64,000 bases of DNA from Bacteroidales bacterium (GTDB lineage: Bacteria > Bacteroidota > Bacteroidia > Bacteroidales > UBA10428). The notes under the pieces were generated by a model that saw only the letters and a program-made list of their open reading frames with translations, did not search any database and was not told where the DNA came from. The stretch spans positions 47,899 through 111,898 of the forward strand of contig JBNKPU010000168.1 in assembly GCA_050295515.1 (NCBI GenBank), written 5' to 3'. Positions 3,626-62,768 of the stretch are shown here, piece by piece; the stretch's first letter is position 1, and each line of letters begins with the position of its first letter. The position numbers were made by a program, and so were the translations under genes.

Positions 3626-3635
3626 GTTTAAATAG

Positions 3636-25021: not shown

Positions 25022-25084
25022 AGATTATTTAGTCAACTGTAAAATAATAACTAACCGATTATTCTTTTAACGTATAATATTTTA

Positions 25085-44248: not shown

Positions 44249-45166
44249 TTATTGGTTTAATGCCTTCCTAGATATTACTACCATGTGATCAAAAGCATTT
44301 ATTATACGATACGGTTTTTTTGGTTTTGCTACAAAAATAATTAGGGCCTTAAAAATATTCCTAATAAATATTTTTAAATTATCTGAAAACGACCCCATGT
44401 AAGACTTTCTATACGATGCAACCTCTTCAAAATTATTAATGTTTAAGAAATTTTTAATGCTGCTTAAAGAAAAGAAAGAGATATGTAAATAAGTACAAAA
44501 ATAGTTCCACCTCGACCGGCCAATTAGGGCATTTAAACTAGTTATGTTTCCGGTACCCAACACCAACAAACCATCATCTTTTAAATAATAATTTACGAGT
44601 TCCATCATCTCATTGGGTGCTACTAGATGCTCAAGAACATCAAACATTAAAATAACATCAAATTGCTCACCTTTAAATGTGTCTTTACTAAGATAAGTGT
44701 TTAGCAAATTTAGATTTAAATGATTCTTCCCAAATTCAACAGCCTCTTGCGAAGGATCGATACCTATGCATTGCCAATTATTCGGATTAAATGTTTGCAA
44801 TAAGAAGCCATATCCTGAACCAATCTCAAGCACTTTGCCCGATTTTTTAATTCTTTCGATTTTCCTCACAACAAATTCGTTGTCGGCTTGTCTATTATTA
44901 ACTGGTATAGTATCCTGAGGGTAATATTCTTTATTTAAACTAGAATAGTATTTGTCCAATAAATTGGGGTGTATTATGGGCGAACTAAATCTGTGTCCGC
45001 AATTATCACATTTATACAAAGCTATTTGAGGCTTTTCCTGAATACCCAACCCTTTTAGAACATCTTCACTTGTATATTCAAAATCAAATTGCCAATTAAT
45101 TTTGATGTTTGAACAGACTGGACAACTATCAATACTTAAATAACCTTTACCAATTTCTACCTCCAT
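44249..45166 (-). CDS. class I SAM-dependent methyltransferase with N-terminal Cys4 zinc ribbon
   Basis: CPVC...CDNCGH ribbon, then VLEIGSGYGFLL (motif I) and ILMFDVLEHL. Confidence 0.75.
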   Translation of the reverse strand: MEVEIGKGYLSIDSCPVCSNIKINWQFDFEYTSEDVLKGLGIQEKPQIALYKCDNCGHRFSSPIIHPNLLDKYYSSLNKEYYPQDTIPVNNRQADNEFVVRKIERIKKSGKVLEIGSGYGFLLQTFNPNNWQCIGIDPSQEAVEFGKNHLNLNLLNTYLSKDTFKGEQFDVILMFDVLEHLVAPNEMMELVNYYLKDDGLLVLGTGNITSLNALIGRSRWNYFCTYLHISFFSLSSIKNFLNINNFEEVASYRKSYMGSFSDNLKIFIRNIFKALIIFVAKPKKPYRIINAFDHMVVISRKALNQ

Positions 45167-45235
45167 AATAAGGAACTTACTTTATATATAGCCATATACC
45201 TAATGTTTAAAAATTAGACCTAGAATTACCCATTG

Positions 45236-46036
45236 TTAACCTCTGAAATGATTTAGACTGTAATTATAAATCAAATAATCCAAACTGTTTTTTTTCTTAA
45301 AAAGTTGAATGTCTTTCTCTGTTAAAACAGCTGCATTATTCTTTTCTCGCTTTGTTTTATTAATATGGGGTATGGCAACCTTTTTCTTTCCTAACTTATT
45401 AGCCAATATATCCAACGAGTCTTGAGCCTGCTCTAGTATTCCAACAAAATAATAATTGTCAATACATTCTTTATAATTATCATATGTACATCCCAGCTGA
45501 TTGCTAATATAATTTACATTATTGCATAAATAGGCATTAATTAGCGGATCTGCTGATAGTTGAATGTTTGAAGTAGGCTCTAAGAAAACAAACTGTTTTA
45601 ATGTTAAAATACTAGAATCTATTTGCTTTGTACGCACAGCATAATAGTATTTCGAGATAATGGTTTCGAGCGGATCGCGTAAAAAAGTAATTAGCCGATA
45701 GTTTGGATTGTTATAAATCTTTGGGTACACCTGCCATAAATGATATCCTTGTAGGTGGTAATGTCCTTTTAAACAACAAAAAGACCTAAGTGATTTAAAC
45801 TTAATAAAAGGTAAAGTGTAAACATAACGAGGCAACCCGATATCGGCAATTATTAAAAACCACTTACTTAATACCAAGCCAATGGATTCTCCACCACATT
45901 TAGGAATATGGTGAAATATGGTAATCGGATATTTCGAATAAAATGGAAATTTCAGGATAAATTTAAAATTAACCAGATAATGAATTAAGTAAGACTTAAT
46001 CATTTTATATACTAGTTTTATTTTATTTGCGTTCAT
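45236..46036 (-). CDS. sulfotransferase family protein
   Basis: HHIPKCGGES matches the PAPS 5-prime-phosphosulfate binding loop (HIPKTGGTS-type). TFLRDPLETIISKYYY matches the 3-prime-phosphate binding region. Confidence 0.75.
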   Translation of the reverse strand: MNANKIKLVYKMIKSYLIHYLVNFKFILKFPFYSKYPITIFHHIPKCGGESIGLVLSKWFLIIADIGLPRYVYTLPFIKFKSLRSFCCLKGHYHLQGYHLWQVYPKIYNNPNYRLITFLRDPLETIISKYYYAVRTKQIDSSILTLKQFVFLEPTSNIQLSADPLINAYLCNNVNYISNQLGCTYDNYKECIDNYYFVGILEQAQDSLDILANKLGKKKVAIPHINKTKREKNNAAVLTEKDIQLFKKKNSLDYLIYNYSLNHFRG

Positions 46037-46080
46037 ATGTATTGCTTATATCCAGAACTTACTCCTAATAAAGTAGGGCG

Positions 46081-47445
46081 TTATTGCCCCCAAATACCAA
46101 AGGCTCGCTTATTAATAATCTTATTATATTGCGTATATAGTATTAGTCCGATAAACAAAAACAAAATGCTTTGCGTAAGTACAATACCGGTTATGCCAAT
46201 AATTTTAGTTAAGTAAATAGCTAATGGAATATTTACCAAGGCAGCAGTTGCAACACAAATTAATTGAAGTTTTATTTTACTAACTCCATTTAAAAAATTT
46301 ATAAAAATAGTTTGCCAGGTAAACAGACTAAAATAAATAGCTATAATAACCGAAAGGCTAAAATCAATAACAATTTTATCGCCAACCCATAGTTTAATTA
46401 TAGTTTTGCTAAATAATAACATTGTTATAATTGCAACATTAGAAAGCAGCCATATTTTTTGTAATTTTTTAATTACACTTCTAATCCAGCTATAATCTCC
46501 TTTAACCCAAGCCTCTGTTGTTGCAGACCAGAAAGGAGCAATAATAATTCCAAACATCATGTTTACAACATTAAAATATCGGAATGTAACATGATAAGGT
46601 GTAACCTCTTCGGGACCTAATAAATGCGAAATAATAAAATTATTTGTATTAAAAAGAACCACGGTGCTAATTGATATAATAAAAAATTTGAGTCCTAAAT
46701 TAAGAAGCGAATTAGTGTACTTAAAATCTATAAACCTAAAACTTGGAGTATAATTATGATATCTTTTGCGGAATAAAACAAAAGTAAAAATTGTACTAGT
46801 TAATACGGGTCCAGCACTATAGCAAAAACTAAGTAAAAAAAGAGAGTCATTCGAAAACTGCATCACTACAATAATGGACACAAAACCGGTTACACTGCCA
46901 ATGGTATTAATAAGGTAAGCATATGCAGGTTTTTGATCAGCATTTAATACAGTATTTATTGTTTTAATTATAAACTGATAACAGAATAATGTAAATACAG
47001 TATTAATAACAAGCCTAAGTTCCTGCTCAAGTTCTCTAGGCGCATTAAGCACTTCGCTCCAGCGAATAAAGCGAGATGAAACTAAAAAAAGTATAGCAAG
47101 CGATCCGAAAATAAAGAGTAACAAGGCATAGGTGGTGCTTACGAGTGTCTTTGCTTCTTGTTGTTTATTTTGAGCTAATGCTTGGGCAAATTTATTCCGA
47201 AAACCACTTGTTAGGCCAACATCAAAAAGTCCAAACCAAATAATAATTGAACTAATTGTAACCCATATTCCGTATTTTAATGAACTAACATATGATATCG
47301 CTAGAGGCACAAGAGTAAGGTTAATTCCAATATTAACAATCCTTATTAAAAATGAGCCAGCAATATTTTTTTTTGCCTTTATGCTTCTTTCATGTCCTGA
47401 TAAAATTTTTCTATTTACTAAAAGTAATAAGTTATTTATGCTCAT
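46081..47445 (-). CDS. wzx: Wzx-type polysaccharide flippase (MOP superfamily)
   Basis: 454 aa with about 12-14 TM helices. The position is typical, next to wzc and the glycosyltransferases. Confidence 0.8.
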   Translation of the reverse strand: MSINNLLLLVNRKILSGHERSIKAKKNIAGSFLIRIVNIGINLTLVPLAISYVSSLKYGIWVTISSIIIWFGLFDVGLTSGFRNKFAQALAQNKQQEAKTLVSTTYALLLFIFGSLAILFLVSSRFIRWSEVLNAPRELEQELRLVINTVFTLFCYQFIIKTINTVLNADQKPAYAYLINTIGSVTGFVSIIVVMQFSNDSLFLLSFCYSAGPVLTSTIFTFVLFRKRYHNYTPSFRFIDFKYTNSLLNLGLKFFIISISTVVLFNTNNFIISHLLGPEEVTPYHVTFRYFNVVNMMFGIIIAPFWSATTEAWVKGDYSWIRSVIKKLQKIWLLSNVAIITMLLFSKTIIKLWVGDKIVIDFSLSVIIAIYFSLFTWQTIFINFLNGVSKIKLQLICVATAALVNIPLAIYLTKIIGITGIVLTQSILFLFIGLILYTQYNKIINKRAFGIWGQ

Positions 47446-47484
47446 AAATACTAATTAGGCCTTACACAAGGCTTTGATAGAATG

Positions 47485-49869
47485 TTAAAACCATTTTTTC
47501 CTTTTTTCCCTTTTGTCAACACTATAATACTCCTCATAATATCCATATCCATAACCATAGCGATATGAATAACCATAATACCCTTTTACCTGTATATCGT
47601 TAACCACAATACCCGCATTATTAATTAATTTCTTCTCGTAAATGTTGTTTGCCAATTCAATAACCTGTTTATCGGAATAATTGTGTCGGATAACAAAAAT
47701 GAACGCATCCAGCACATCTTTAAGTGTAAGAGTATCTGTTACAATAGCTATGGGGGGCGTATCCAGAACAATATAGTCGTATTCTTTTTTTGTCTGTTCA
47801 ATAAAATCACTCATCCTCTTTGATCCTATTAGCTCTGCCGGATTAGGTGGTATAGGACCAGAAGTGGCAACAAAAAGATTATTGATATTTGTTTCGCTTA
47901 TTATTTCATCGATCTGGTTTTTCTCAATTAGGTATGTACTCATACCTGTCTTATTCTCCAGGTTAAAAACCTTATGTACCTTTGGCCTGCGTAAGTCCAA
48001 ACTAACCAATAGTGTTTTTTTACCTGCCAAAGCCAGTATACTTGCCAGGTTTACCGAAGTAAAGGTTTTCCCTTCGCCGCTTACAGCTGAAGAAACAGCA
48101 ATTACCTTAGCATCCGGATCTTTTAGAATATACTGCAGATTGGTTCTTAAAGCACGGAAAGACTCTGCCAGGGAAGAACGTGGATTTTCATTTACCGGCA
48201 GTTCAGAGCCTTCCTTGTTATGCCCTATATTACCAACAATGGGAGCTTTCAGGTTAGCTTCCAGGTATTTTCTGTCGGTAATCTTTGAATTGAAAAAATC
48301 GATTAATAAAAGTAAAACAAGAGGTATGGTACCTCCTGCTGCCATTGCCATCATGTAATTCATCGACGATTTTGGCTTTATTAAGGTAGCATTCTCGGGT
48401 CGGGCAATATCCAGTATTTTATGATCGGAAGTGTTGGAAGCTCTTGTAATACCGGCCTCGGCGCGTTTCTCCAACAAGAAGGTATAAATCTGGTCGTTAA
48501 TGGTAAATTCACGTTCAATATTAATCATTTGCCTTTCGGTACCCGGCAATTTCTGTACTTCGATTTCAATCTTACCAATTCGCTCGTTGAGTTCGGTAAT
48601 TGCTATTTTGTTGCCTTCCACCAGGCTTTTCAGGTTTTCCTTTAAGGCGTTTTTGGTGTTATTTACCTGGTTGTTTACAATATTTAGCTGAGGTGAAGCC
48701 TCGGCAACACTTAAACTCAAGTTGCGGCGCTGTAAGTTTAATTCGTTTAATTCGCCAATCAGCCTGTTCAATAGGGGATCGGCAATTCCCACAACCGAAG
48801 GTGCTACCACATCGCTAAAATCAGCCTTTTGTTCTATGTATTCCAATAAGTACGAATAATACCGTTCCTTAATATCCAGCGCAGCTCTTTCGCTTTGTAA
48901 ATCCTGCATTTTTTCATACAGGAATGAACCTTCCTTGCTAAGGTTAATTACCTTATTTGCCGAACGAAAACGCTGTAATCTCAAACCGGTCGATTCCAGC
49001 GAATCAACTACTCCTCTTAATTGATCATCGATAAACTGGATGGTGTTTTCTGAGGCCCTATTTTTTTCTTCAAGGTTTGTACGAATATAAACTTCTGAAA
49101 GCTTATTCAGGTAATCGGCAATTTGTTGGGGAACAAAACCCGAGAGGTTCATCAAAAGTATTGAACCTTTCTCGGCATTTACATCAACACTTAAACTATT
49201 GCTGTATTTCTTGGCCTGTGCATTTATACTGTTTATGGTAAAATAGTATTTGTTAGAACGCTGGTTATTAAAATCAAAATTTTCAGGATTCCTGAGGACT
49301 ATATTAAACTTATTTTGTCCGGCTTCAACCTTTTTGCCGAAAACATAGGTGCCAAGAATGTTTTCACCTGCTGAAAGTTGGTATTTTTGGTTTGAAAGGA
49401 TGGCAACATTAAAGGTGCCAGCATTTGTTCGTCCATCGGTAGTGTCTGGTATTACAACAAAAGGGCTTGCTGTATAAAGCTGGCTTTCGGCTATGTTTCT
49501 TCGCCCAATTGCAGTGTAGGTTATACCAAAGTCAAGTTCTTCCAATGCCAGGCGGGCCATCTTATATGATTTTAAGATACTTATCTCATTTTCTACTACT
49601 GCTTTTCTTTGTTTGTTGCGACCCCTTGAAAGTTCATCCATTATGCTTTCGACACTACCGGCACCCCTTTCGGGCTCTCCAACTATTAATGAGCTATTTA
49701 CGCTATATATCTCCTGCGAATAGCGATTTACTAAATAGGCAATGGTAATTGATATAAAAAGTGTAATAGCAAACCACCACCAATGGGATAGAATGAGGTA
49801 GATGTATTTTTTTATGTCGATACCTTCTTCTTGGGGTATCTGGAAATTATTTTGTTGTTGTGGATCCAT
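47485..49869 (-). CDS. wzc: polysaccharide co-polymerase / tyrosine autokinase (Wzc-like)
   Basis: N-terminal Wzz domain with two TM helices and a coiled-coil periplasmic region. Walker A SGEGKT, Walker A-prime LLVSLDLRRP and Walker B YIVLDTPP are present. The tail is Tyr-rich: GYYGYSYRYGYGYGYYEEYY. Confidence 0.9.
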   Translation of the reverse strand: MDPQQQNNFQIPQEEGIDIKKYIYLILSHWWWFAITLFISITIAYLVNRYSQEIYSVNSSLIVGEPERGAGSVESIMDELSRGRNKQRKAVVENEISILKSYKMARLALEELDFGITYTAIGRRNIAESQLYTASPFVVIPDTTDGRTNAGTFNVAILSNQKYQLSAGENILGTYVFGKKVEAGQNKFNIVLRNPENFDFNNQRSNKYYFTINSINAQAKKYSNSLSVDVNAEKGSILLMNLSGFVPQQIADYLNKLSEVYIRTNLEEKNRASENTIQFIDDQLRGVVDSLESTGLRLQRFRSANKVINLSKEGSFLYEKMQDLQSERAALDIKERYYSYLLEYIEQKADFSDVVAPSVVGIADPLLNRLIGELNELNLQRRNLSLSVAEASPQLNIVNNQVNNTKNALKENLKSLVEGNKIAITELNERIGKIEIEVQKLPGTERQMINIEREFTINDQIYTFLLEKRAEAGITRASNTSDHKILDIARPENATLIKPKSSMNYMMAMAAGGTIPLVLLLLIDFFNSKITDRKYLEANLKAPIVGNIGHNKEGSELPVNENPRSSLAESFRALRTNLQYILKDPDAKVIAVSSAVSGEGKTFTSVNLASILALAGKKTLLVSLDLRRPKVHKVFNLENKTGMSTYLIEKNQIDEIISETNINNLFVATSGPIPPNPAELIGSKRMSDFIEQTKKEYDYIVLDTPPIAIVTDTLTLKDVLDAFIFVIRHNYSDKQVIELANNIYEKKLINNAGIVVNDIQVKGYYGYSYRYGYGYGYYEEYYSVDKREKRKKWF

Positions 49870-49966
49870 ATTATGTTCAAGTGATTAAGTACTTATGATA
49901 TTGAGTGATTGTGTCAGATCACTGTTATCACTTTTGCAACAACTCTGCAATTCTATTAGCTACAAG

Positions 49967-50140
49967 GGTTAAACCCGTAATATGCATTAGAAAATCTATT
50001 ACATATTGAAACTGCTTCAATATAAGTCGTTTCACTTACTTGTTTCGATGCACCATAACGGTGCTATGATTTATCTCACCAAGTCCTTCTATTTTTGCAC
50101 TTTCAACCTTCATAACGAAGTTCTAATACATAATCAGGGC
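49967..50140 (-). repeat. mosaic MITE-like repeat, copy 2 (short form) inside the upxY-wzc gap
   Basis: Its reverse complement aligns end to end with 59679-59851 at roughly 90 percent identity by eye. The termini are cccgtaatatgcattag / ctaatacataatcaggg. Confidence 0.85.
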
Positions 50141-50461
50141 TAAATTTAAAATGAATTATTTAGATTGTTTACTGCTTGCCATCCAAAGTTTCAACTTAAG
50201 CTAATTAAATTGAAAAATTGTCAAAATGTTGTATTTTATGCTTTGATTTTCTGATTATAAAATTTTAATCAATACACCAGCTCTCACAGTCAAACTCCTA
50301 GTGTTTCCATAGCTTCGCCCGGTCAGTTACAGGATTAAAATCTGCAATAACTTGGCTATCAGTAGTATAATTAAAATGCCAAAAATTAATTCGTCTGCTT
50401 GGCATACAGAAATTTAGTTAAATAAGGAGATATGCCCTAACTAAACCTTAAATTTAATTGT

Positions 50462-50977
50462 TCACTGAATAATTCTGAGGTAGGTTGGCGGTATTTTTAC
50501 TAACAAATTCTGATTAATATGGTGTATACGCAACAGAAAATGCTTTTCCCTCGCACGAGAGACCAGTTCTCCAATCAAACCTTTTAAGGAGCCAAGTACA
50601 ACTTCAACTGTTTGTCCTTTTTTGAAAGCAGTTTCTGTCAATTCAATTTCAGCATTGCTGTCTATTAAAAGTTTAAGGTGGTTAATCTGCTTCTCGGGAA
50701 TACTAACAGCCCTTCCTTCGAATGTTACATACCGAACTACCCCATGTGTTTGTAGTACCAGGTAATATTCCCTTAATGAAATGTGTACAAAGACATAAGA
50801 AGTAAATAAGGGTACTTCAACCAGTTTCTTGCGGTCGCTCCATTGCCGCAAAGTTTTGTATAAAGGCAGGTAGGCATCCATACCTTCTTTTTGAAGACTA
50901 TTAAATACTTTCTTCTCCCAGCGTGGTTTGGTATATACCGCATACCATATTTTATTTTCATCCTGAGTGCCCGTCAT
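50462..50977 (-). CDS. UpxY-family transcription antiterminator (NusG paralog)
   Basis: WYAVYTKPRWEKKV NGN-domain start and KOW-like KGQTVEVVLGSLKGLIGELV. The start was moved from TTG 51001 to ATG 50977. Confidence 0.8.
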   Translation of the reverse strand: MTGTQDENKIWYAVYTKPRWEKKVFNSLQKEGMDAYLPLYKTLRQWSDRKKLVEVPLFTSYVFVHISLREYYLVLQTHGVVRYVTFEGRAVSIPEKQINHLKLLIDSNAEIELTETAFKKGQTVEVVLGSLKGLIGELVSRAREKHFLLRIHHINQNLLVKIPPTYLRIIQ

Positions 50978-50998
50978 AATAGTACTTTTGTGATAATA

Positions 50999-51006
50999 CA
51001 AATGTA
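50999..51006 (-). promoter_or_regulatory. candidate TAnnTTTG promoter element upstream of upxY
   Basis: The minus strand reads TACATTTG, about 25 nt upstream of ATG 50977. An alternative TATCTTTG lies at 51192-51199 inside the palindrome tctatctttaccaaagataga. Confidence 0.3.
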
Positions 51007-51306
51007 CTACTGATTGAAACCAATAACAAGAAGAAAAAAGTATTTGATTTTCTTACTAATGATAGCGCTGTTTTGTAGGAATTGTTTGTTTATGAAATAG
51101 AATTAGCATCTTCCTTAACCGCTCCCATAAAGGTATTGCCCGGGAATGAATCAAACCTCGCTCCGTCATGAATATAGGCTTCTATCTTTACCAAAGATAG
51201 AACAGGCTGTAGGCCTTATTTATTTCAACCTGATAGCATGGCCCCGGAGATGAACAATAAGAAATTCAAGGTTCTAGGTTGATAGAAAAGATGTATTCTT
51301 TCCCTA

Positions 51307-52113
51307 TTATCGACTACTAACAGGTGAAAAATAATTCAGCACCAAAAACAGTGTTGTAATAGCCCCTAATGTCAAAGATATAGTAGGTATATTGTTCCTG
51401 AAGTTTTTGCTTTTTACTGGCTCTACATATACTATATCGTTAGGTAAAAGGAAAAATCCTTCGGATTTTAGAAGATCTGTACTGGTTAGGTCAAAACGGT
51501 AAGTCTTGGTTCCTTCTACACCTGGCCTTATTACCATAACCTTTCTTCTGTTTCCGAAAGTTGTAACATCACCGGCCGCACTGATCGCCTCAAGAACGGT
51601 TAGCTGGTTATTAAAATTGGTAAACATCCCAGGATTAGCTACCTCACCCATTACAGAATATTTAAAGGAAATAAGTTTTACTATAACTGTCGGATCTTTT
51701 AAAAACTTGTCTGTCTGGGCTACTATTGCAGTTTTGGCCTCCTCAAGTGTTTTTCCAACCACATTTACCTTGCCTATGACCGGGATTTCAACATTGCCTG
51801 AGTCATTGACATTATATCCATAAATATAAAAACTGGCGGCGTTATTATAAACATTTGCACCATACATTGGGGTAGTGTTTATAACTTCTGTGACTTCCTT
51901 ATTCATTGAAATGATCCTGATAAACAATACATCGCGTTGTTGAATTTTATAATCGGGAAAGCTATAAGGGAAAAAGTTGATTGAATCGGCATTTGATTCT
52001 GCAGACTGCAGGTAAACCAAATCCTTATAGCGGGTACAGGACTGTAAGCCTAAAAAAAGGACTATCCCAGAATAGAATATTAGTTTATATATTTTATGAT
52101 TTAGTATTTTCAT
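51307..52113 (-). CDS. wza: polysaccharide export outer-membrane lipoprotein (Wza-like)
   Basis: The lipoprotein signal LFLGLQSC follows ATG 52113; the track start TTG 52176 is less likely. Poly_export-like DYKIQQRDVLFIRI is present, followed by an SLBB-like region. Confidence 0.8.
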   Translation of the reverse strand: MKILNHKIYKLIFYSGIVLFLGLQSCTRYKDLVYLQSAESNADSINFFPYSFPDYKIQQRDVLFIRIISMNKEVTEVINTTPMYGANVYNNAASFYIYGYNVNDSGNVEIPVIGKVNVVGKTLEEAKTAIVAQTDKFLKDPTVIVKLISFKYSVMGEVANPGMFTNFNNQLTVLEAISAAGDVTTFGNRRKVMVIRPGVEGTKTYRFDLTSTDLLKSEGFFLLPNDIVYVEPVKSKNFRNNIPTISLTLGAITTLFLVLNYFSPVSSR

Positions 52114-52308
52114 TGTTTTGCTATAAGTTCCAATTTTAGTTAAAAAAAATCTTTCCCTTAGAAAATAAAGATTCAAGTTAAAAATAAAACTTCATTTTTC
52201 AATATCTGATCCCTGTGGCAAATAATTACCAACAAAATGCCCTTAAACAATTAAGGGCGGCACAAAGGAGTATTAATTTAGCAGAATTCCAGGTATTATC
52301 AGAACGAC

Positions 52309-52503
52309 CTTAAACCCGAAATATGCCTTAGAAAATCTATTAACCTGAGTTCGATATAAGTCGTTTCACTTACTTGTTTCGGTTATTCATACTCACTTTA
52401 TTTTTATTGCATTCATGAACTCCCTATGGTCGGTTCATCATAGCGGTGCCTTCTATTTTTGCATTTTCAACCTTCATAACGAAGCTCTAATGCATAATCC
52501 GGG
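52309..52503 (-). repeat. mosaic MITE-like repeat, copy 3 (long form with internal insertion module)
   Basis: It contains both terminal arms plus the module accgaccatagggagttcatgaatgcaataaaaataaagtgagtatgaataac, shared with copy 1. It ends 3 bp from the gpmI terminator. Confidence 0.85.
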
Positions 52504-52505
52504 AT

Positions 52506-52537
52506 AAAAAAAACCGGGACTATAAAGGTCCCGGTTT
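52506..52537 (-). terminator. rho-independent terminator after gpmI
   Basis: The minus strand reads aaaccgggacctttatagtcccggtttttttt, a 7-8 bp GC-rich stem plus a T8 run. Confidence 0.8.
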
Positions 52538-52560
52538 AAATATTGAATTTGAAAAGTATC

Positions 52561-54075
52561 CTATACCAATACTTTTCCTGTCATATCAGCTGGCACTTCA
52601 AGCCCCATAATAGTCAGAAGGGTAGGGGCAACATCGGCAAGGATACCATCCTTAACACTTTTATATTTATCGCTTACTAGAATGCACGGTACCGGATTCA
52701 AAGAGTGAGCTGTATTTGGGCTGCCATCTTCGTTAACGGCATTATCGGCATTACCATGGTCAGCAATGATCATTGCTGTATAACCATTGTTTTTGGCGGC
52801 TTCAATAACATCACCAACACAAGAATCAACTGTTTCAACAGCTTTTACGATGGCTTCATAAATACCAGTATGTCCAACCATATCGCCGTTGGCGAAGTTA
52901 AGGGCAACGAAATCAACTTCACCCTTGTTGAGTTCTTCAACAATGGCATCGCGTACTTCAGGAGCACTCATTTCAGGTTGAAGGTCGTATGTGGCAACTT
53001 TTGGAGAATTTCTCAAAATCCTTGTCTCTCCAGGGAATTCATCCTCACGTCCACCGTTCATAAAGAAAGTAACGTGGGCATATTTCTCTGTCTCAGCAAT
53101 ACGGATTTGTTTTCCGCCGGCTTTAGAAACCACTTCTCCTATAGTGTTTTGTACATTTTGTTTGTCGAACAATACCTTTACACCTTTATAGTTCTCGTCA
53201 TAGGTAGTCATGGTAATGTAATTTAATGGAATGGTTTTCATCCCATGTTCAGGCATATCCTGTTGTGTAAGCACAGTGGTAATCTGGCGCAGACGGTCGG
53301 TACGGAAGTTGAAACAAATCACAACATCTCCTTCATTTATGGTGCCCACTGGCTTGTTTTCGCCATCAACCATTACAGTTGGTTTGATAAATTCATCGGT
53401 TACGCCTTCTGCATAAGATTCCTCAATTGTTTTTAGAACATCTGTTGAAGGGGTTCCTGTACCGTTTACCATCAGGTCATAGCCAAATTTAATACGTTCC
53501 CACCTTTTATCACGGTCCATTGAGTAGTAACGGCCAATCAGCGAAGCAATTTTTACCTTGCTGCCATCAAAGTGGGTCACAACTTCTTTCATAAAACCCA
53601 GTCCGCTTTTTGGATCAGTATCACGGCCGTCTGTTAAACAGTGAACAAATACATCATTTAGGTCAAAGTCAGCAGTAAGGTCTCCTAGTTTAAACAAGTG
53701 ATGGCTCATGGCATGAACCCCTCCAGGACCAATTAATCCTACAAAGTGGACAGCTTTATTGTTTTCCTTGGCATATTTATAGGCTTCAACCAATGTCTCG
53801 TTTTGGGCGATTGAATTGTCCTCAATTGCTTTATTTATACGCACAAGATCTTGATATACTACACGTCCTGCACCAATATTCAAGTGACCAACTTCAGAGT
53901 TGCCCATTTGTCCATCAGGAAGACCAACATTGTTTCCTGAAGTCAACAATTGTGAAGTTGGGTATTCAGCAGCAAGTTTGTCTATTACCGGTGTATTCGC
54001 CTGAAATACAACATCTCCTTTTCCGTGGTTTCCATTACCCCATCCGTCAAGTATTATCAGAATAGCTTTATCCAT
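52561..54075 (-). CDS. gpmI: 2,3-bisphosphoglycerate-independent phosphoglycerate mutase
   Basis: [22 protein letters not shown] and ADHGNA motifs are present. Confidence 0.95.
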
Positions 54076-54131
54076 TTATCTATATTTTTAGATTTATTAT
54101 CTATGATTTTTTACCGTCAAAAAATGAGCGG

Positions 54132-54139
54132 CAAATATA
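54132..54139 (-). promoter_or_regulatory. candidate TAnnTTTG promoter element for gpmI
   Basis: The minus strand reads TATATTTG, about 57 nt upstream of ATG 54075. Support is a motif match only. Confidence 0.3.
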
Positions 54140-54321
54140 ATTATAAACAACCAAATAGCTGTTAAGTTCATGTGAATTTTGGACCAAAAAAGTCTGAAAA
54201 AAGCTGTTTTACAATACTGTAAGCTCACTACAAAGAAAGATAACGTTGGTTTGACTCTTTTTGAGTCGAATGTTATCATTTGAGACAATAGCCAGGGATT
54301 TGTTGATATATTGAGCATACA

Positions 54322-54329
54322 TAATTTTG
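54322..54329 (+). promoter_or_regulatory. candidate TAnnTTTG promoter element for the 54438 gene
   Basis: TAATTTTG lies about 110 nt upstream of ATG 54438. Support is a motif match only. Confidence 0.25.
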
Positions 54330-54437
54330 GCTTGTATCTTATTTTAGGTTTTTTCGTAAAATAATACTTTCCTATTTTATTGGATTACACCAAAATACTT
54401 TAGAAAAGCCAAAAATCTTATTAATCCTCTAGTTATC

Positions 54438-55859
54438 ATGGACCGAACCTATCAATTACAATTTTGCAAAGTCTGTAAAAACAGTCGTTTTTCTACTCAA
54501 CATGGAATAATATGTGGATTGACAAGAAAACCTGCGGAATTCAAACAATCCTGCGAGCATTTCCTGGAGGTTGAGAATACAAAAGACATGTCCAGTAAAC
54601 CTATAACAGTAGGTGCAAGCCGAGCTTCAAGGCAAAACTTTGGAAATTTGCTTTCCGGTTATTTGGTTTCTTTATACAGTGCATTGGCCATCTTTGCTTT
54701 CGCAGGTATAATAGGACTAAGCGGACTGTCAATTCTTATTATGTTTTTTGGTAGTCTCATAGCATTGGGATCAATAATTATGGCCATTTCAATGCTTTAT
54801 AAACTATGGAGTTATATTATTGTAGAATATAGTATTCAGGGTTTAAAATTACCAGTAAAAAGTGCCGGTCAGGCAATAGGGTATCTGTTTATTCCATTCT
54901 TTAATTTGTATTGGGTATTTGTTGCTATTGGCCAATTGCCGATTTGTCTGAATGAATTGGCCAGAACAAGGCAGGTAAAAATCAATATAGGAGCAAACCT
55001 GGGTTTTATTATAGGGTTTTTATCTCCTTTGGCAATAATTCCTTATGCTGGGACTTTTTTCGGTTTAGTTTCGGCCTTTATACTAATGCCTGTGTTGTTA
55101 ACCAAGGCAATTAAATCCATTGCACTAATTCCTCCTTATACCAGATCTACAGTAGGAGGATTACACATTACTGAAAAGATTGATAGTGCGGAGATAAGGG
55201 ATTTTCGAATGTTATTTAAAACAGATGACCAAGGGTATAATTTCAAATTTGGCTTTCTATTTATAATTGCAGCGTTACTTTATAATCTTACTTATAATCT
55301 GATTAATAATGGATTAAGTTTTGATAATTATAAAGAAATCTATTCTTATGCATACCTGTTTTTTGATGCATTCTTCATTTTTGCTCTCATACTCATAAGT
55401 GGTTCTGTTAATAAATTGCTTTTTGTAATTTTTTCAGCTCTTTTCTACACAATAAGTGCAGCTGGTAGTATGGCTGTATTTTTTTGGAATTACAAGCATT
55501 CTATTCTAGGTACATTTTGGGGTTTTATGAATATAAATACTATTCTGTCATATATTGTTTATGGTGTTCTGTTTGCAGTTAGTCTCGATTTTGTTGTTTC
55601 GAAATGGGGAATAAAATTCTGTGCCATTTTAATCGCAATACTGACCGCTTCGGTTTCAAATCAAATTATATGGATTGCTGAAAACATCATAAACTCTGAA
55701 GAATTCGACTTTAATTATGAGTCTTTACTTTTTTCTGTATTGCATGTCGTATTTATCAGTATAAGTATTTATGTTGGCTTTAAGTGGCATGTTAATTGGA
55801 CATCTGGTTATATTTTCAACAGTCAACCTAAAGAAATATTGGACTACAATTTAGAATAG
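54438..55859 (+). CDS. polytopic membrane protein with N-terminal Cys-rich zinc-ribbon-like segment
   Basis: CKVCKN...GIICGL...C...H at the N-terminus, then at least 10 hydrophobic helices. The segment GYLFIPFFNLYW is vaguely DUF4328-like. Function is unknown. Confidence 0.55.
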   Translation: MDRTYQLQFCKVCKNSRFSTQHGIICGLTRKPAEFKQSCEHFLEVENTKDMSSKPITVGASRASRQNFGNLLSGYLVSLYSALAIFAFAGIIGLSGLSILIMFFGSLIALGSIIMAISMLYKLWSYIIVEYSIQGLKLPVKSAGQAIGYLFIPFFNLYWVFVAIGQLPICLNELARTRQVKINIGANLGFIIGFLSPLAIIPYAGTFFGLVSAFILMPVLLTKAIKSIALIPPYTRSTVGGLHITEKIDSAEIRDFRMLFKTDDQGYNFKFGFLFIIAALLYNLTYNLINNGLSFDNYKEIYSYAYLFFDAFFIFALILISGSVNKLLFVIFSALFYTISAAGSMAVFFWNYKHSILGTFWGFMNINTILSYIVYGVLFAVSLDFVVSKWGIKFCAILIAILTASVSNQIIWIAENIINSEEFDFNYESLLFSVLHVVFISISIYVGFKWHVNWTSGYIFNSQPKEILDYNLE

Positions 55860-55866
55860 GAAATAG

Positions 55867-55905
55867 AAAAAAGGGCTTCAATGTTTTCAAATGAAATCCC
55901 TTTTT
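55867..55905. terminator. bidirectional hairpin between convergent genes
   Basis: aaaaagggcttca...tgaaatcccttttt is an imperfect stem flanked by an A-run and a T-run. It could serve both the 54438 gene and pepF. Confidence 0.55.
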
Positions 55906-55925
55906 CTATAAATCAAAATGGATTT

Positions 55926-57809
55926 TTACTTCTCATCCAAAAGTTTCTCAATTTCATCCATAATAGCATTCATGGCTTCGATAGTCTTATCGAAAGGTTC
56001 TGAAGATGTCATGTCCACTCCTGCTTTTTTCAACAGTTCGATCGGATAATCAGAACTGCCCGAGGACAAGAATTTAAGGTAATTGTCAACCATTCCTTTC
56101 TCTCCTTTAAGTACTTTTTCGGCCAATGATACCGAAGCTGTAAAGGAAGTACTGTACTGGTATACATAGAAATTATAATAAAAATGTGGGATGTATGCCC
56201 ATTCCATTTCAATATAATCATCTACATAGCAAATACCCTTGTCATGTCCGTAATAGCGTTTTACGATATCGGTATATAGTTTCGATAGATATTCTCCAGT
56301 CAAAGCTTCTCCCTTCTCAGCAGCTTCATGCGTTTTAAGTTCGAATTCGGCAAACTGGGTCTGCCGAAACAAGGTACCTTTAAAACCATCGAGCCGGCTC
56401 ATTAACAAAGACAGTTTTGCATCTTTGTCCTTTATTGTTTTAAGCATTTCAGCAAACAAAAGCTCTTCGTTAAAAGTGGAGGCTACTTCAGCTACAAAAA
56501 TGGGGTAGTCGGAAGTAGGATAAGGCTGGAATTTATTTGAAAAATAGCTTTGCATAGTATGCCCTAGTTCATGGGCAAGTGTACTAACATCATTATACTG
56601 TCCGTTGTAATTGAGCAAGATGTAAGGATGCATATCGTATGCAGAACCCTGCGAATATGCACCTGACCGTTTGCCTTTTGTTGGATAAACATCTATCCAG
56701 TTATTTTCAAAAGCTTTTTTTATTGTGCTTGTATATTCATCGCCTAGTGGAGCAAGTGCTTTTAGCACCATATCCTGAGCCTCTTCATATGAATACTCCA
56801 GGTTAATATCCTTAACAACAGGCGCATATAGGTCAAGGTATTTAATAGTGTCTACACCCAACATTCTTTTTTTAATTTTCAAATACCTGTGAAAGGCATC
56901 CAGGTTCTTGTTTACATTTTCGATAAGTGAATGATAGACATCTGTTGAGATATTCTGGGGGAACAGGGCTGCATCTAAAGCTGATTCGTATTTTCTGGCT
57001 TTGGCATAGAATATATCTTTATTTATTGTCCCAGAAAGCATCTCTCCAAAAGTGGCTTCGTATTTTTTAAAGTTTTCGAAAAAAACTTTAAAAACCAGTT
57101 CTCGATCATCCCTGTTTTCTGAAGCACGATATTTACTGAAACCTGCACTACTCAGGACAACTTTTTCACCTGTGCTAAGGGTTACTTCAGGATTGATCAT
57201 TTCAGCATTTTTATATGTGCTGTAAACCGAACTGGTTGTAGAAGCCATTGGACCTGTAAGAGCTAAAATTCTTTCTTCGGCTTCGCTAAGCGAGTGCTCT
57301 TGCTTACGGAATAGATCAAAAAGGCCCATCCTGTATTGCCCAAGTTTTGGCTCTTCTTTTATGAATCCTTCAATAGTCTTCCAGTCTGTGGTCAATATCT
57401 CCGGGTCGATAAAGGCCGCTTTGGTAGAAAAATCTGAGAAAACCTGCAGCATTTCTTTTTGCATGCCCGAATATTTCATGTTCTTGGTATCCTCATCGGA
57501 ATGCATACTAGCATAAACTAAAAGTAGAAGGGCTTGTTTGCTTAAGTCTGAATTAAACTCAAGGCAGGTTAGCAGTTGTCCTGCCGATTGGGTTAAGGTC
57601 CCTTTGAAAGATTCAATCTGGGGAATTTTTTCGACCAATTGATCTTTTGATTCCTTCCAGGCTTCTTCTGAAGGGAATAAATCGTTCAGGTCCCATTTGT
57701 ACTTGGATTCAATTTCATCTCTAGTTTTTTGACCGTTGATGTGTTGGACCCCTAAAATAAAAAGGATAAAAATTGCACTGATGGCGGCTTGTAATGTTTT
57801 GATTTTCAT
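55926..57809 (-). CDS. pepF: oligoendopeptidase F (M3B metallopeptidase), secreted
   Basis: HELGHTM zinc motif, signal peptide MKIKTLQAAISAIFILFILG, and length and pattern typical of PepF. Confidence 0.9.
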   Translation of the reverse strand: MKIKTLQAAISAIFILFILGVQHINGQKTRDEIESKYKWDLNDLFPSEEAWKESKDQLVEKIPQIESFKGTLTQSAGQLLTCLEFNSDLSKQALLLLVYASMHSDEDTKNMKYSGMQKEMLQVFSDFSTKAAFIDPEILTTDWKTIEGFIKEEPKLGQYRMGLFDLFRKQEHSLSEAEERILALTGPMASTTSSVYSTYKNAEMINPEVTLSTGEKVVLSSAGFSKYRASENRDDRELVFKVFFENFKKYEATFGEMLSGTINKDIFYAKARKYESALDAALFPQNISTDVYHSLIENVNKNLDAFHRYLKIKKRMLGVDTIKYLDLYAPVVKDINLEYSYEEAQDMVLKALAPLGDEYTSTIKKAFENNWIDVYPTKGKRSGAYSQGSAYDMHPYILLNYNGQYNDVSTLAHELGHTMQSYFSNKFQPYPTSDYPIFVAEVASTFNEELLFAEMLKTIKDKDAKLSLLMSRLDGFKGTLFRQTQFAEFELKTHEAAEKGEALTGEYLSKLYTDIVKRYYGHDKGICYVDDYIEMEWAYIPHFYYNFYVYQYSTSFTASVSLAEKVLKGEKGMVDNYLKFLSSGSSDYPIELLKKAGVDMTSSEPFDKTIEAMNAIMDEIEKLLDEK

Positions 57810-57952
57810 AGCAATATAATTAATAATATGACATTAAGCTTCCTATAACCAATAGGTAGCCTTTAACTTACTCTATAAATATTGCCGCTATAAATCGCTA
57901 AAGTAAATGAAAATCTTGAAGATCGAAAAAGGAAAAAGGAAATATATCTAGG

Positions 57953-58153
57953 GCTTGTTGAAAAAGTCAGAAAGTAGTGAGATGCGACTTGACAAAATGA
58001 AGACGTATTAGCATACTTCGAATTGCAGGCAAAGAGGTAGATTGCTACTTTCTGGCTAATACTTTCGGATTTATTATCAACTTTTTAGGTGCACATAATT
58101 TTAACCAGGATAATGTATTAGAACTTCGTTATGAAGGTTGAAAGTGTAAAAAA
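57953..58153 (+). repeat. mosaic repeat fragments (leader hairpin module plus isolated left arm)
   Basis: 57953-57985 gcttgttgaaaaagtcagaaagtagtgagatg matches 3637-3668. 58105-58153 ccaggataatgtattagaacttcgttatgaaggttgaaagtg matches the left arm of copies 2, 3 and 6. The 10 bp inverted pair cagaaagtag/ctactttctg spans 57968-58054. Confidence 0.7.
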
Positions 58154-58194
58154 TATTTACAAGCTTGATCAATTTTTTAAAGTTGCTTGCGGGA

Positions 58195-58480
58195 AGGGCT
58201 GAACGTTAAAAAGCAACACTAAATGTGTTGTTTTAGTGAGGAGCCAGCTTGCAGGGCTGATAAAAAAAAGTTGCTAGTGGGCGGCCTAGGCTTTTCTTGA
58301 TTTTTTGCTTACTTTTTCATCCAAGGAACCGAGCAAAGCAAGTTCATGAACCCATATAAAAATAAACGCATGTGAATAAAAAGTAAGAGCCCGTCCGGCT
58401 AGAGGACAAAGGTTATTGACAGCTAATCTGCCAAGTTTTTGCAGGATTTTTAAAAAAGCTGGTAGAATTACAAGGATATT
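58195..58480 (-). repeat. family-2 repeat, copy B (inverted partner of 25085-25345)
   Basis: 58289-58391 is the reverse complement of 25162-25264 with 1 mismatch in 103 bp. The 66 aa ORF predicted here has no counterpart ORF at copy A. Confidence 0.85.
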
Positions 58481-58537
58481 TATCAACGCAACTATTTTTA
58501 TTTAGTTGATTATGTCGTATTTCATTTTTAACTATTT

Positions 58538-58571
58538 AATAGATTTTCTAATGCATATTCAGGGTTAAAGC
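58538..58571 (+). repeat. isolated right arm of the MITE-like repeat
   Basis: aatagattttctaatgcatattcagggttaaagc matches the right terminus of copies 1 and 6. Confidence 0.7.
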
Positions 58572-58634
58572 AAAGCGCGTTTAGACTTACTAAGCTAAAA
58601 GGATAAGGGAAACGGATAGAAGGAAAACAAGACA

Positions 58635-58886
58635 GTCCGTAAGGAAAGACCAAATGCCGATAAGGAGTAGACAAAGGTCCATAAGGAATACAAGAATGTC
58701 AGGTAACTATAGCCGAAATGCTTTAAGGAATACAAGAACGTCCATAAGGAACGCACAAAGGTCCATAAGGAATGCACAAACGTCCATAAGGAATGCACAA
58801 ACCTCCATAAGGAACGCACAAACGTCCATAAGGAATGCACAAACCTCCATAAGGAACGCATAAACGCCTTTAAGGAACAAGCAAAC
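58635..58886 (+). repeat. 21 bp tandem repeat array, 12 units
   Basis: TAAGGA recurs at 58640, 58661, 58682, 58724, 58745, 58766, 58787, 58808, 58829, 58850 and 58871, with a degenerate unit at 58703. The six central units (58740-58865) follow GTCCATAAGGAAYGCACAAAS almost perfectly. Edge units degenerate, with weaker echoes back to about 58598. Confidence 0.9.
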
Positions 58887-58947
58887 CATTCTCCAATAAA
58901 TATTGGGGATTTAAATAAATAGTTTAATTAACCTAAATTTCAATTAA

Positions 58948-59637: not shown

Positions 59638-59678
59638 TGCAGTTTGCTAGAGAAACAAAGAGTAGTATAAACATTAAA

Positions 59679-59851
59679 TCCGGATTATGTAATTGAACTT
59701 CGTTATGAAGGTTGAAAGTGCAAAAATAGAAGGACTTGGTGAGATGAATCTTAGCACCGCTATGGTGCTTCGAAACAAGTAAGTGAAACGACTTATATTG
59801 AAGCAATTTCAATATGGTTTAGATTTTCTAATGCATATTTCGGGTTAAACC
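59679..59851 (+). repeat. mosaic MITE-like repeat, copy 6 (short form, complete)
   Basis: Left arm tccggattatgtaattgaacttcgttatgaaggttgaaagtgcaaaaatagaagg and right arm tagattttctaatgcatatttcgggttaaaccc. Internal hairpins are catagc/gctatg-type and tattgaa/ttcaata. It ends 4 bp from the stop codon of the VIT-vWA gene. Confidence 0.85.
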
Positions 59852-59855
59852 CAGC

Positions 59856-62768
59856 TTACTTCTTGAATTCTATTTCTCCAACCAAGAAGTCGCCTTGTTT
59901 GTTGGGCTCCAGCTGAAGTGTTATTATTTCTCTTTTCTCATTGGCAGAACCAAAATTTGTATATACAAAAGCACGTACTGTTACATTCCCTAATAGGAGC
60001 TGTTTTCTGGTTCCAAAAAAGTTCACATCTATTTTATATTTTCCTTCTATAGCATGTTTTAAGCGGAATTCCTCTGGTCCATATCCTTGTGTGATGTCAT
60101 TTGATATTTTGCCACCAATTTTTGTTTGGGTGTTAGAATAGCTACATCTTTCACTCTGGGGGTCGGTAACCCACAGATCGATATCTGTATCGTTGGCATC
60201 CCAGTCAATCACAATTCTTATATCAACTGGCATTTGCTTTATAAAGCATGCGTTGATTTCTGAGAAGTCAATTTTATTACCGTGATGGTGAATAATATTG
60301 TTTATGTCGTGAAGCACAATAAGCTCAATGCCAGGAAAACGTGAGATAATATCACTGTCCCAATCCTTATCAATAACCTGGTAAAGACTGTTAATTGCTT
60401 TCTGATATTCACCTTTTTGACTATAAGCCAGTCCAAGATCAATATAGGAATGAGGTTCAAATGAGCGGGTTTTCATTACTTCATGGAATACAGCCAATGC
60501 TTCATCGTAAAAATTATATTCCAATAATTTTCTTCCCAGTGTCCGCAGAAGTTCAGGGTCTTCCAGCTCGAGTTCTGCCAGGTTTGAAATTACTCTTAAT
60601 CCTTCATCCCGCTTTGATTTCTGGAACATATAGGTAGCTACATCGAAATAGAAGGATGGATTACCTTCATTGTCATCTTTAAGTTTTAAATAGGTTTTAT
60701 ATAGATTTTCTGTATCAGTAGCTTTCAGGTCATTCATATAAGGGGCATTGCTCTCCCATTTGTTTACGGTAATGGAAGAAGAATATTCCGATAGTCTGCC
60801 TTCTTGTTTTTTCTGTTTGCCCTCACGGCTTCGTGATACTGAACTTTGTCTTGGTGCAACAGTCTCTTCTAAATCTGCTTCTGCAGCCATATTAAAATCA
60901 ACTCCAGAAACTTCTAAATCATCGGTTGTGTTTAATTGATTTGGTGAAGATGGAGATGGAGCTATGTCATTATCATGTAGGATTTTTTCTTTAATTTTAT
61001 GGTCACCTACAGTTTCCCACCAATTGATATCTTCTTTAAACTGTTGGCAGATTTGATCTATACGATTTTGCCTGAATGTCTCTCTATCTTTTGTCTGTGT
61101 AGAAACAAGGGCATAATACTCATTCTGAAGCGATTTTGGTGGAACAATACCATACCTAACATAATCCTGAACATTATCCAGGACTATTAAAGAAGTTCCT
61201 GGTGTTACCAGGCTAAATTTCTTTCCGTGCGCCTTTATATCTTCGCTACTTCCTTCGACCAATAGCGATTTAAGCTTTTTCTGTGCCCATATACGTTCGC
61301 CAATGTTATTTTGTATGCGTTTACTATTGTCGACGAGTATTGTATGCGATTCAGTAATTGTATTTCCAAATCCAAAATGGAGCGTTATTTCATTTTGTGC
61401 ACCTTCAGCAATACCAGAACAGCTGAATTGATGTGTGACTGTTTGTCCGTTTTTTGGATAAAACTCCTTAATGCTTTCATTGTTGTATTCTGCACGAATA
61501 AACCTCTTTTGTTCATTTGTGAGGATTTGAAATGCATGCTCTTCAGAAATTCTAAATGCATCGATATAAGTTCCGTTTGATGAAGAAGAAATGAATTCCA
61601 AAAGATTATGGTCGGTAATGTTTGAGCTGTTTATAGCTATTACTGGCGATTTGAACCGGTATGTGGGTATCTCGCCAAAATTGGATAATCCATCAGTAAA
61701 CAGTAAAATTTCTTCTGACTGTAGTTGATGAAAATCTATGGCGCTTAGGTTTGTAGCTCCATCATAGGGGACAGATTTCAGCAAATTTATTAAATCAGGG
61801 CATTTTCCACCTTTTATGCTAAAGGTATTTGTTGAATGGAGTGTATTTGAAAAAGTGATTAAACTTATCGATCCCTTATTCATCCATTCCAGGTAACGCT
61901 CAAGAATCGATAGCTCTTTATCCAGGTCCCTGTTTTTTGCTGAGGCTGAAACATCCCATACAACGGTAATGTCAGCCGGTTTTGCCTTGTTTCTCATAGC
62001 CTCCTGAAGTCCCATGTTGATATAAAAATAGTTGTCGGAGGTTACAGTACCCTTATAGGTTAAAACTTCATTGATCTGATTTGGTTTTGGGATGGCGAAA
62101 CTTAAATAAGTATTTAGTTCGGCATCCTTTTCCTCGTATTTACTGATGAACGAGTTATGGATTTCTGTAAAATTTAAATTTATAGCCGGGTCTTTACTGT
62201 TTAGTGGCTTGGGTTTGTTCATGACCACTTCAACTTGAACAGAAAACTCGGCTAAAATGTGATTAAAGTTTAAAGGCAATTGGTATATAAATTCCTTTTC
62301 GTTGCCCCTCAGCTCTTGTTCAAAAGCAATAACAGCTTTTTTATACCCTTTGGCAGGAATAGGATAAATACGGGTTTTAAAATTATTGCCCTTGGTTACT
62401 TCTACTAATCCGGGGTCGATGTTTTGTCGAACAACAGCTTCAAAAGCTTGTGTAGCTTTTTCCTTATCAACAACAACGCCTTCGCGCATTTCACCATTTA
62501 CGTCCAAGGCATACCGTGAGACAGAAACTCCATTTGCCAATGGAAAATTCAATTCTCCTTCCATGATCCTGTTGTTGTGGTTGTAGAATTGCATTTCGAA
62601 AGTTGTTGTAGCAATATTTTCTACAACGAAAACAGAAATATCCAGTTTTCTTAACTCTATAGGCTTGTCATCTGACGAACCTGTTTCAATGGCGGGAATA
62701 CGAATGGTCTGTGCTTCTAACATAGTGGTAGATAGGATTATTTGGAGTAAAATTATTATTTTTTTCAT
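59856..62768 (-). CDS. secreted VIT - von Willebrand A - TPR - DUF2135 multidomain protein
   Basis: Signal peptide MKKIIILLQIILSTTMLEAQ from ATG 62768; the track start at 62813 adds 15 aa. The N-terminus is VIT-like (VENIATTTFEMQFYN...GELNFPL). The vWA MIDAS motif is VVWDVSAS. TPR helices include EALAVFHEVMK...GEYQKAINSLYQVI. C-terminal IDLWVTDPQSERCSY...DITQGYGPEEF resembles DUF2135. Confidence 0.8.
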   Translation of the reverse strand: MKKIIILLQIILSTTMLEAQTIRIPAIETGSSDDKPIELRKLDISVFVVENIATTTFEMQFYNHNNRIMEGELNFPLANGVSVSRYALDVNGEMREGVVVDKEKATQAFEAVVRQNIDPGLVEVTKGNNFKTRIYPIPAKGYKKAVIAFEQELRGNEKEFIYQLPLNFNHILAEFSVQVEVVMNKPKPLNSKDPAINLNFTEIHNSFISKYEEKDAELNTYLSFAIPKPNQINEVLTYKGTVTSDNYFYINMGLQEAMRNKAKPADITVVWDVSASAKNRDLDKELSILERYLEWMNKGSISLITFSNTLHSTNTFSIKGGKCPDLINLLKSVPYDGATNLSAIDFHQLQSEEILLFTDGLSNFGEIPTYRFKSPVIAINSSNITDHNLLEFISSSSNGTYIDAFRISEEHAFQILTNEQKRFIRAEYNNESIKEFYPKNGQTVTHQFSCSGIAEGAQNEITLHFGFGNTITESHTILVDNSKRIQNNIGERIWAQKKLKSLLVEGSSEDIKAHGKKFSLVTPGTSLIVLDNVQDYVRYGIVPPKSLQNEYYALVSTQTKDRETFRQNRIDQICQQFKEDINWWETVGDHKIKEKILHDNDIAPSPSSPNQLNTTDDLEVSGVDFNMAAEADLEETVAPRQSSVSRSREGKQKKQEGRLSEYSSSITVNKWESNAPYMNDLKATDTENLYKTYLKLKDDNEGNPSFYFDVATYMFQKSKRDEGLRVISNLAELELEDPELLRTLGRKLLEYNFYDEALAVFHEVMKTRSFEPHSYIDLGLAYSQKGEYQKAINSLYQVIDKDWDSDIISRFPGIELIVLHDINNIIHHHGNKIDFSEINACFIKQMPVDIRIVIDWDANDTDIDLWVTDPQSERCSYSNTQTKIGGKISNDITQGYGPEEFRLKHAIEGKYKIDVNFFGTRKQLLLGNVTVRAFVYTNFGSANEKREIITLQLEPNKQGDFLVGEIEFKK

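Follow-up and report, generated by a model that had tools for sequence, protein, structure and literature searches.

The Correia elements of Neisseria, the ERIC/IRU elements of enterobacteria and the RUP elements of Streptococcus pneumoniae are short, intergenic and multicopy, and are bounded by terminal inverted repeats. They form long hairpins when transcribed, display size variants arising by internal insertion (as in the long forms of ERIC) and occur across related genera; the target of Correia and RUP is TA, and the partner is IS630-like or not known. The termini of piggyBac transposons start with CCC, and the hallmark of the IS1380 family is a 4-5-bp direct repeat (ISfinder). IS1380 transposases are the prokaryotic outgroup of piggyBac (PMC10813416), and members of the family misread their ends, mobilise adjacent DNA and carry outward promoters (PMC9330008). 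Within Bacteroidota, MITECca01 and MITECca02 of Cardinium are IS982-derived and about 240 bp long (PMC9769881). In this study, we examined a 64,000-nucleotide stretch of a Bacteroidales contig (hereafter the window; 35% G+C), for which a preliminary description had proposed a mosaic, MITE-like repeat family. The repeats are very probably a non-autonomous DNA transposon (MITE), moved in trans by an IS1380-family DDE transposase common in Bacteroidota. The transposase would recognise termini of about 19 bp (CCCGNATTATGCATTAGAA) and insert the element at TTWAA, duplicating those 5 bp. Literature searches with the element's own sequence strings found no paper, and those combining MITE with Flavobacteri*, or IS1380 with MITE, found no description of the family; a large automated census of MITEs in Bacteroidota (PMC11602168) may list it without a name. 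What we add are its precise limits, the duplication of 5 bp at TTWAA, a partner from the IS1380 family, its wide occurrence and a fold supported by covariation.

In roughly 74 kb of the source organism we found four full copies and four fragments or relics (table 1). The three copies first described as complete all exist, with boundaries 2-7 bases inside those originally given, yet the long form, first placed at 52309-52503, is not complete, since part of its apical region is lost. A repeat scan of the whole window aligned 49949-50145 with 59673-59869 (88% over 197 nt), and 3676-3788 with 52337-52449, the region of the long-form module (92%). The left arm, also recognised early, is borne out by the 20-mer CTTCGTTATGAAGGTTGAAA, which occurs four times in the window against 0.01 occurrences expected by chance; the short forms, at first judged about 90% identical, are 91-92% identical to each other. 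Coding capacity is nil, the longest stop-free stretch in the 166-189 bp window copies being 46-51 codons; the window element encodes no protein and is thus not an IS. The copies in the source genome look old: they have diverged by 8-9%, the duplication is mutated in two of four, and truncated relics are present. In the capsule-export region (49869-52561), copies occupy the leaders of the Wza-like (start 52176) and Wzc-like (start 49869) genes, both with the right end toward the gene, and a NusG/UpxY-like gene (50462-51001) lies between them.

Table 1. Features of the repeat family and of the family-2 core in the window and on adjoining contigs (L012, L016).
Feature	Position	Strand	Extent and evidence	Flanking pentamers	Surroundings
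Complete short-form MITE copy	59679-59844	+	166 bp; sequence, covariance-model score 164 bits, identical flanks	TTAAA 59674-59678 and TTAAA 59845-59849 (5-bp duplication)	Between convergent genes: 210-aa ORF (end 59637) and VIT-domain gene (end 59856)
Complete short-form MITE copy	49974-50139	-	166 bp; covariance-model score 177 bits	TTTAG 50140-50144 and TTTAA 49969-49973 (read on - strand; one mismatch)	85 nt upstream of Wzc-like gene start (49869), downstream of NusG/UpxY-like gene
Long-form MITE copy	52315-52503	-	189 bp; covariance-model score 108 bits; additional internal module, part of apical hairpin region gone	TTTAT 52504-52508 and TTTAA 52310-52314 (one mismatch)	Directly after the T-run of the iPGM terminator, 119 nt upstream of Wza-like gene
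Long-form copy, 5'-truncated	3661-3817	+	Covariance-model score 54 bits, repeat scan; keeps right arm, apical hairpin and module, without left inverted repeat and left arm	TTTAA next at 3818-3822	Just past the groEL terminator
Orphan left end	58105-58152	+	Inverted repeat CCAGGATAATGTATTAGAA and left arm with CTTCGTTATGAAGG hairpin; 43 bits	Preceded by TTTAA 58100-58104	
Orphan right end	58527-58564	+	Ends in …TAATAGATTTTCTAATGCATATTCAGGG; repeat scan and covariance model	Followed by TTAAA 58565-58569	
Further full copy outside the window	L012:9494-9657				About 3.9 kb past window end
Decayed relic outside the window	L016:1770-1890				About 6.2 kb before window start
Long-form internal module	52383-52436	-	About 55 nt; related to family-2 core		Within the long-form copy
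Family-2 core repeat	58276-58480	+			Between the two orphan ends
Family-2 core, second copy	25076-25278	-	89% identical		Without flanking MITE termini

The terminal inverted repeats, alike at both MITE ends, are 19 bp long and imperfect, as had been proposed: within the window copies 13-15 of 19 positions match, or 15-17 of 24, and in other copies (e.g. L003, L024, L035) the repeats are perfect or near-perfect. The element proper starts with CCCGG and ends with CCGGG; the adjoining TTTAA or TTAAA is duplicated target and lies outside the inverted repeat. When copies are placed in like orientation, the pentamers beyond CCCGG… and …CCGGG are repeated in the same direction rather than inverted. 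Target-site duplications, which the preliminary description could not identify with confidence, are thus present and 5 bp long. The count covered 39 full copies, drawn from the window, from 10 reference genomes and from metagenomes: the pentamers are identical on both sides in 27, with 14 copies flanked by TTTAA/TTTAA, 11 by TTAAA/TTAAA and none by one of each (Fisher p = 2.2e-7). Further matching pairs are TTCAA/TTCAA and TTTAT/TTTAT, and ATAAA/ATAAA in a paired-terminus scan of metagenome loci. The pentamer varies among near-identical members of the same subfamily (L068 vs L069, L066 vs L075, L119 vs L064), and hence derives from the target and is not inherited with the element. The target is TTWAA, a wider context not being evident. 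A rule of insertion behind terminators, suggested by the first copies, was rejected, as only about 6 of 45 copies adjoin one. At several loci (L072, L008, L137, L122, L007, L010, L134, and L021) the insertion falls exactly on the stop codon of a flanking ORF; given that TAA lies within the duplicated TTWAA, the duplication restores the stop.

For a partner transposase, a second terminus in inverted orientation was sought among the metagenome loci. Most terminus pairs lie 106-238 bp apart and represent short elements, but two enclose longer ones with the same termini, of 1393 bp (L031, flanks TTTAA/TTTAA) and 1403 bp (L126, flanks TTCAA/TTCAA), each encoding a protein of 434-438 aa. The L031 protein scores 242 bits against NCBIfam NF033539 (IS1380 family; cut-off 180) and matches Pfam DDE_Tnp_1_4 (PF13701) at 1.9e-45. 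Its C-terminal …SNA-stop (TCT AAT GCA TAA) lies inside the right terminus, and this location of the last codons and stop of the transposase explains why the inverted repeat hardly varies there. The complete genome of Polaribacter batillariae contains at least four identical IS copies (L140-L143) with termini CCTGAATTATGCAATAGA … TTCCTAATGCATAATGCGGG, and two of them display matching TTAAA or TTTAA duplications. Homologues of the transposase at 73-79% identity number in the thousands; the named ones are annotated as IS1380 family transposase in Lunatimonas, Fulvivirga, Algoriphagus, Polaribacter, and Solitalea, and one from Salegentibacter as DDE-domain transposase. Overall, the partner termini read CCCGG… or CCTGAA…, and the duplications are 5 bp long; L031, L126 and L140-L143 share the termini and the duplication length with the MITE. 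Shorter relatives of the IS also occur: elements of 987 bp with matching 5-bp flanks are internally deleted IS derivatives, and at least five unrelated short families (112, 162, 171, 174, and 220 bp) carry the same termini, again with matching 5-bp flanks. This IS clade thus serves several non-autonomous families, the window MITE among them. Its termini are closest to the IS right end; yet its interior has no similarity to that of the IS, and thus it is not a simple deletion derivative. A tblastn search found no transposase of IS1380 type in the window and about 30 kb of adjoining MAG contigs (some 94 kb of the organism), in line with the initial reading of the window as lacking a transposase; the IS1380-family elements with matching termini were found in other organisms. 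A transposase of this IS1380 type probably moves the MITE, and the organism of the window would then have, or formerly have had, such a partner. The initial view of the repeats as MITEs fits all of this: they are small and noncoding, with inverted repeats, 5-bp duplications, dispersed copies and autonomous elements with the same termini.

Copies of the family are not restricted to the window. The exact left-arm 20-mer was found at ten loci in species-representative genomes, from several Aquimarina species and from Kordia, Dokdonia, Maribacter and an uncultured flavobacterium, in units of 126-233 bp with the same ends, plus one internally deleted copy of 78 bp. The same 20-mer has no match in the metagenome and viral collections, the metagenome relatives differing there by 1-3 bases. 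With the terminus CCCGNAWTATGYATTAGAA we retrieved at least 120 loci in metagenome contigs, among which, as listed, a covariance model built from 12 units recovered about 35 more full-length members. In all, at least 43 full copies occur in about 40 contigs, and the family spans at least two orders of Bacteroidota, placed in different classes in the NCBI taxonomy. A terminus scan of viral contigs gave a single match, inside a coding region and attributed to chance, and a BLAST search for distant matches in a plasmid collection returned nothing matching. Closer to the source organism, the best named relatives of its iPGM are from MAGs labelled Bacteroidales, Salinivirgaceae, and Marinilabiliales. 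Near-identical contigs (99.8-100%) come from three NCBI MAGs and one Logan assembly; the near-identical MAGs all have the same insertions, and several of the contigs start or stop inside repeat copies, as expected of a multicopy sequence. In the nearest other relative (L018, iPGM protein 92% identical) synteny is lost and no copy is present; further relatives reach at most 75-87% protein identity, and those found through iPGM and the VIT protein lack usable synteny.

The family is also mosaic, as was first suggested: long and short forms differ by a module, extra hairpin modules occur at fixed points, and the orphan ends are fused to unrelated repeats. Relative to the short form, the long form has an extra stretch of about 58 nt after the apical hairpin, intact at 3661-3817. 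Kinship of this module of some 55 bp with the family-2 core, likewise noticed at the outset, is confirmed by a local alignment score of 46 against 18.3 +/- 2.5 in shuffles; the core itself is a repeat of about 205 bp, of which about 55 nt are common to both. The core occurs in no other fetched locus and has no Rfam match, and its candidacy as a structured RNA was dropped on fold z-scores of 0.4 and 0.8. Between 58100 and 58570 the arrangement is orphan left end, family-2 core, orphan right end; a single clean insertion or one long element at 58105-58564 was rejected because the flanks differ (TTTAA vs TTAAA). One MAG contig (L011, to 3615) is 99.99% identical to 44561-58461 of the window and departs at 58461/58462, precisely where the family-2 core ends, into a tyrS/rbfA/macB region, and another contig of the same MAG (L012:1) starts within the core; this breakpoint is either a strain rearrangement or a repeat-induced mis-assembly in one source. 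Other repeats lie nearby. A fragment of 36 nt with a small hairpin (GCTTGCTGAAAAAGTCAGCAAG) is found at 57949-57984 and 3633-3668 (92% identity); the former lies some 150 nt before the orphan left end, the latter to the left of the truncated copy (3661). A tandem array with a 21-bp unit (TAAGGAATGCACAAACGTCCA) follows directly on the orphan right terminus and precedes the 210-aa ORF; it extends over 58598-58908 (best at 58724-58877; 7.3 good copies, 86% identity), with degenerate copies upstream, and one MAG contig ends inside it. At L086:3748-3981, the arrangement looks nested or tandem: a full copy is adjoined, in opposite orientation, by a very short unit (about 60 bp) that has the same termini. 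In the right arm, a GC-rich hairpin (CCTGCCTGCC-GGCA-AAGGCAGG) and longer variants thereof occur at a fixed point between TAATA and GATTTTC in Aquimarina and some metagenome subfamilies (L006, L010, L008, L035, L094, and L122), and seem to be a small secondary module that is mobile or optional. These variants are multicopy in Aquimarina celericrescens (L006, L010), and three copies are found in one contig (L122); several variant copies per genome or contig point to amplification of the short unit itself. Mosaics would arise via secondary insertions and deletions inside the rod and recombination between copies, and possibly also from end-misrecognition, the misreading of ends by IS1380-type transposases being a plausible source of those in the window. 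Could the repeats instead be inert relics, deleted or broken IS and solo ends that never formed a mobilisable family of their own? The orphan ends and truncated copies of the window, the 987-bp IS deletion derivatives elsewhere, and the 8-9% divergence of the window copies, two with imperfect flanks, would suit such an origin. It is nonetheless very improbable: units of a constant size near 166 bp, whose interior is not related to that of the IS, recur across at least 40 contigs and several orders with their duplications intact, and lineage-specific subfamilies are multicopy within a genome or contig (L006, L010; three in L122).

Besides termini and target, the copies share a fold. In the consensus, the inverted repeats form the basal stem of a rod, with a side hairpin (CTTC-GTTAT-GAAG) on its 5' arm; above, GGTTGAAA pairs with TTTCAA, followed by two more stems and the apical hairpin CATAGC-ACC-GCTATG. 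The two hairpins named in the preliminary description are both present in sequence, and the first, catagc-acc-gctatg, is the conserved apical hairpin, but over 43 copies tattgaa-gcaat-ttcaata pairs better with the left-arm GGTTGAAA. We tested the fold on the 43 copies, aligned with MAFFT without any structural fitting. Standard pairs fill 91.5% of cells, against 81.8% in shuffles and 32-47% in slid registers, and the covariation score of 0.337 (vs 0.166) was reached by 0 of 500 shuffles, a control that overstates significance because the sequences are related, the slid registers being the fairer one. Both sides have changed in 27 of 46 pairs (191 cells). We counted 140 G-U pairs and 30 A-C mismatches overall, and 53 versus 19 when the count is confined to the internal stems. 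The rod is preserved by compensatory substitutions, with G-U tolerated on one strand only. Moreover, a window copy folds at -44.4 kcal/mol on the + strand and at -34.3 on the - strand, copies point the same way as the upstream ORF in 26 of the 36 cases that could be scored (p = 0.011), and both the 14-nt side hairpin (CTTCGTTATGARGG) and an unpaired GTAATAGATTTTC are nearly invariant.

G-U bias, strand energy and co-orientation together argue for selection on one single strand. Most likely, and most simply, this strand is the read-through transcript: an insert that folds stably on itself within 3' or intergenic RNA would be harmless or would stabilise that RNA. The covariation exceeds what transposition alone requires, and a second layer of function is conceivable. 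A more specific proposal, possible although rather unlikely in our judgment, is that the fold has a selected function, either as a stabiliser, processing site or insulator of the sense-transcript RNA, or as a folded strand needed by the IS1380-type transposase; it would explain the compensatory changes across orders, the one-strand G-U pairs and the invariance of the side hairpin and of GTAATAGATTTTC. A stronger version dispenses with transposition and takes the repeats for structured noncoding RNA genes or cis-regulatory RNA, kept for their RNA function and duplicated by ordinary recombination. The conserved fold with its many compensatory changes, the G-U asymmetry, the advantage of about 10 kcal/mol of the + strand and the co-orientation all speak in its favour, yet the copy-specific 5-bp duplications largely refute it as a stand-alone explanation. 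Termini identical to those of IS1380-family elements, neighbour genes that are unrelated from copy to copy, and the truncated and decayed relics also speak against it. Nor was a known structured RNA or conserved promoter found: Rfam 15 returned no match at gathering thresholds over the whole window, and around the copies only chance-level ones (E >= 2), and the window copies do not show the Bacteroidetes -33/-7 pattern. We thus consider this version very improbable. A tRNA/tmRNA scan gave nothing. An outward Bacteroidetes-type promoter in the right end (TTTG, 19 nt, TAnnTTT) was considered and rejected, the window copies having ATTG and so not matching; in the window as a whole the pattern occurs as often as expected (14 found, 14 expected). 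Finally, a REP/BIME-type palindrome or integron attC site, spread on folded single-stranded DNA by a RAYT transposase or an integrase, would also be imperfectly palindromic and intergenic, with one strand folding better and some copies right after terminators, but has next to no likelihood: the ends are CCCGG…CCGGG with 5-bp duplications and not a REP tetranucleotide or attC R''/R' (RYYYAAC / GTTRRRY), the neighbours are housekeeping genes (groEL, iPGM) and not cassettes, terminators adjoin no more than about 6 of 45 copies, and the matching autonomous element has a DDE transposase, which together with the duplications refutes it.

With defined termini, target and partner, the MITE explains contig breaks and intergenic repeats in assemblies of marine Bacteroidota, and the family can now be masked and annotated. 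It ties a widespread element of the IS1380 clade to short passengers with a TTWAA target, which is useful for understanding the choice of ends and targets by transposases of the IS1380/piggyBac type. To judge from their placement, the copies in the leader regions of the wza-like and wzc-like genes could alter the expression of capsule export. While a MITE is an ordinary kind of genomic parasite, the hairpin fold of this one is unusually well conserved, and lends itself to finding out whether selection acts on MITE hairpins as RNA; conserved and strand-biased, it is the one feature that might repay experiment.

Among known systems, the window MITE resembles Correia, ERIC and RUP as a hairpin-forming intergenic repeat with size variants; yet it has no sequence similarity to them, and differs in its TTWAA target with a 5-bp duplication, its IS1380 partner and its Bacteroidota hosts. 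MITECca01 and MITECca02 are likewise found in Bacteroidota and were recognised by inverted repeats common to the parental IS, but their parent is IS982, they are confined to a single lineage and they retain IS-derived subterminal sequence, which is absent from the window MITE. Eukaryotic piggyBac-derived MITEs have, as here, a TTAA-containing target and CCC termini, whereas the duplication is 4 bp (TTAA) in these and 5 bp (TTWAA) in the window MITE, whose hosts are bacterial. With the IS1380 family (IS1380, ISEcp1, ISPme1), the elements described here have in common a partner transposase above the NCBIfam cut-off, termini starting with CC and the 5-bp duplication; in contrast to its members, those of the window are 166-189 bp long and noncoding, with an unrelated interior and both ends like the IS right end.
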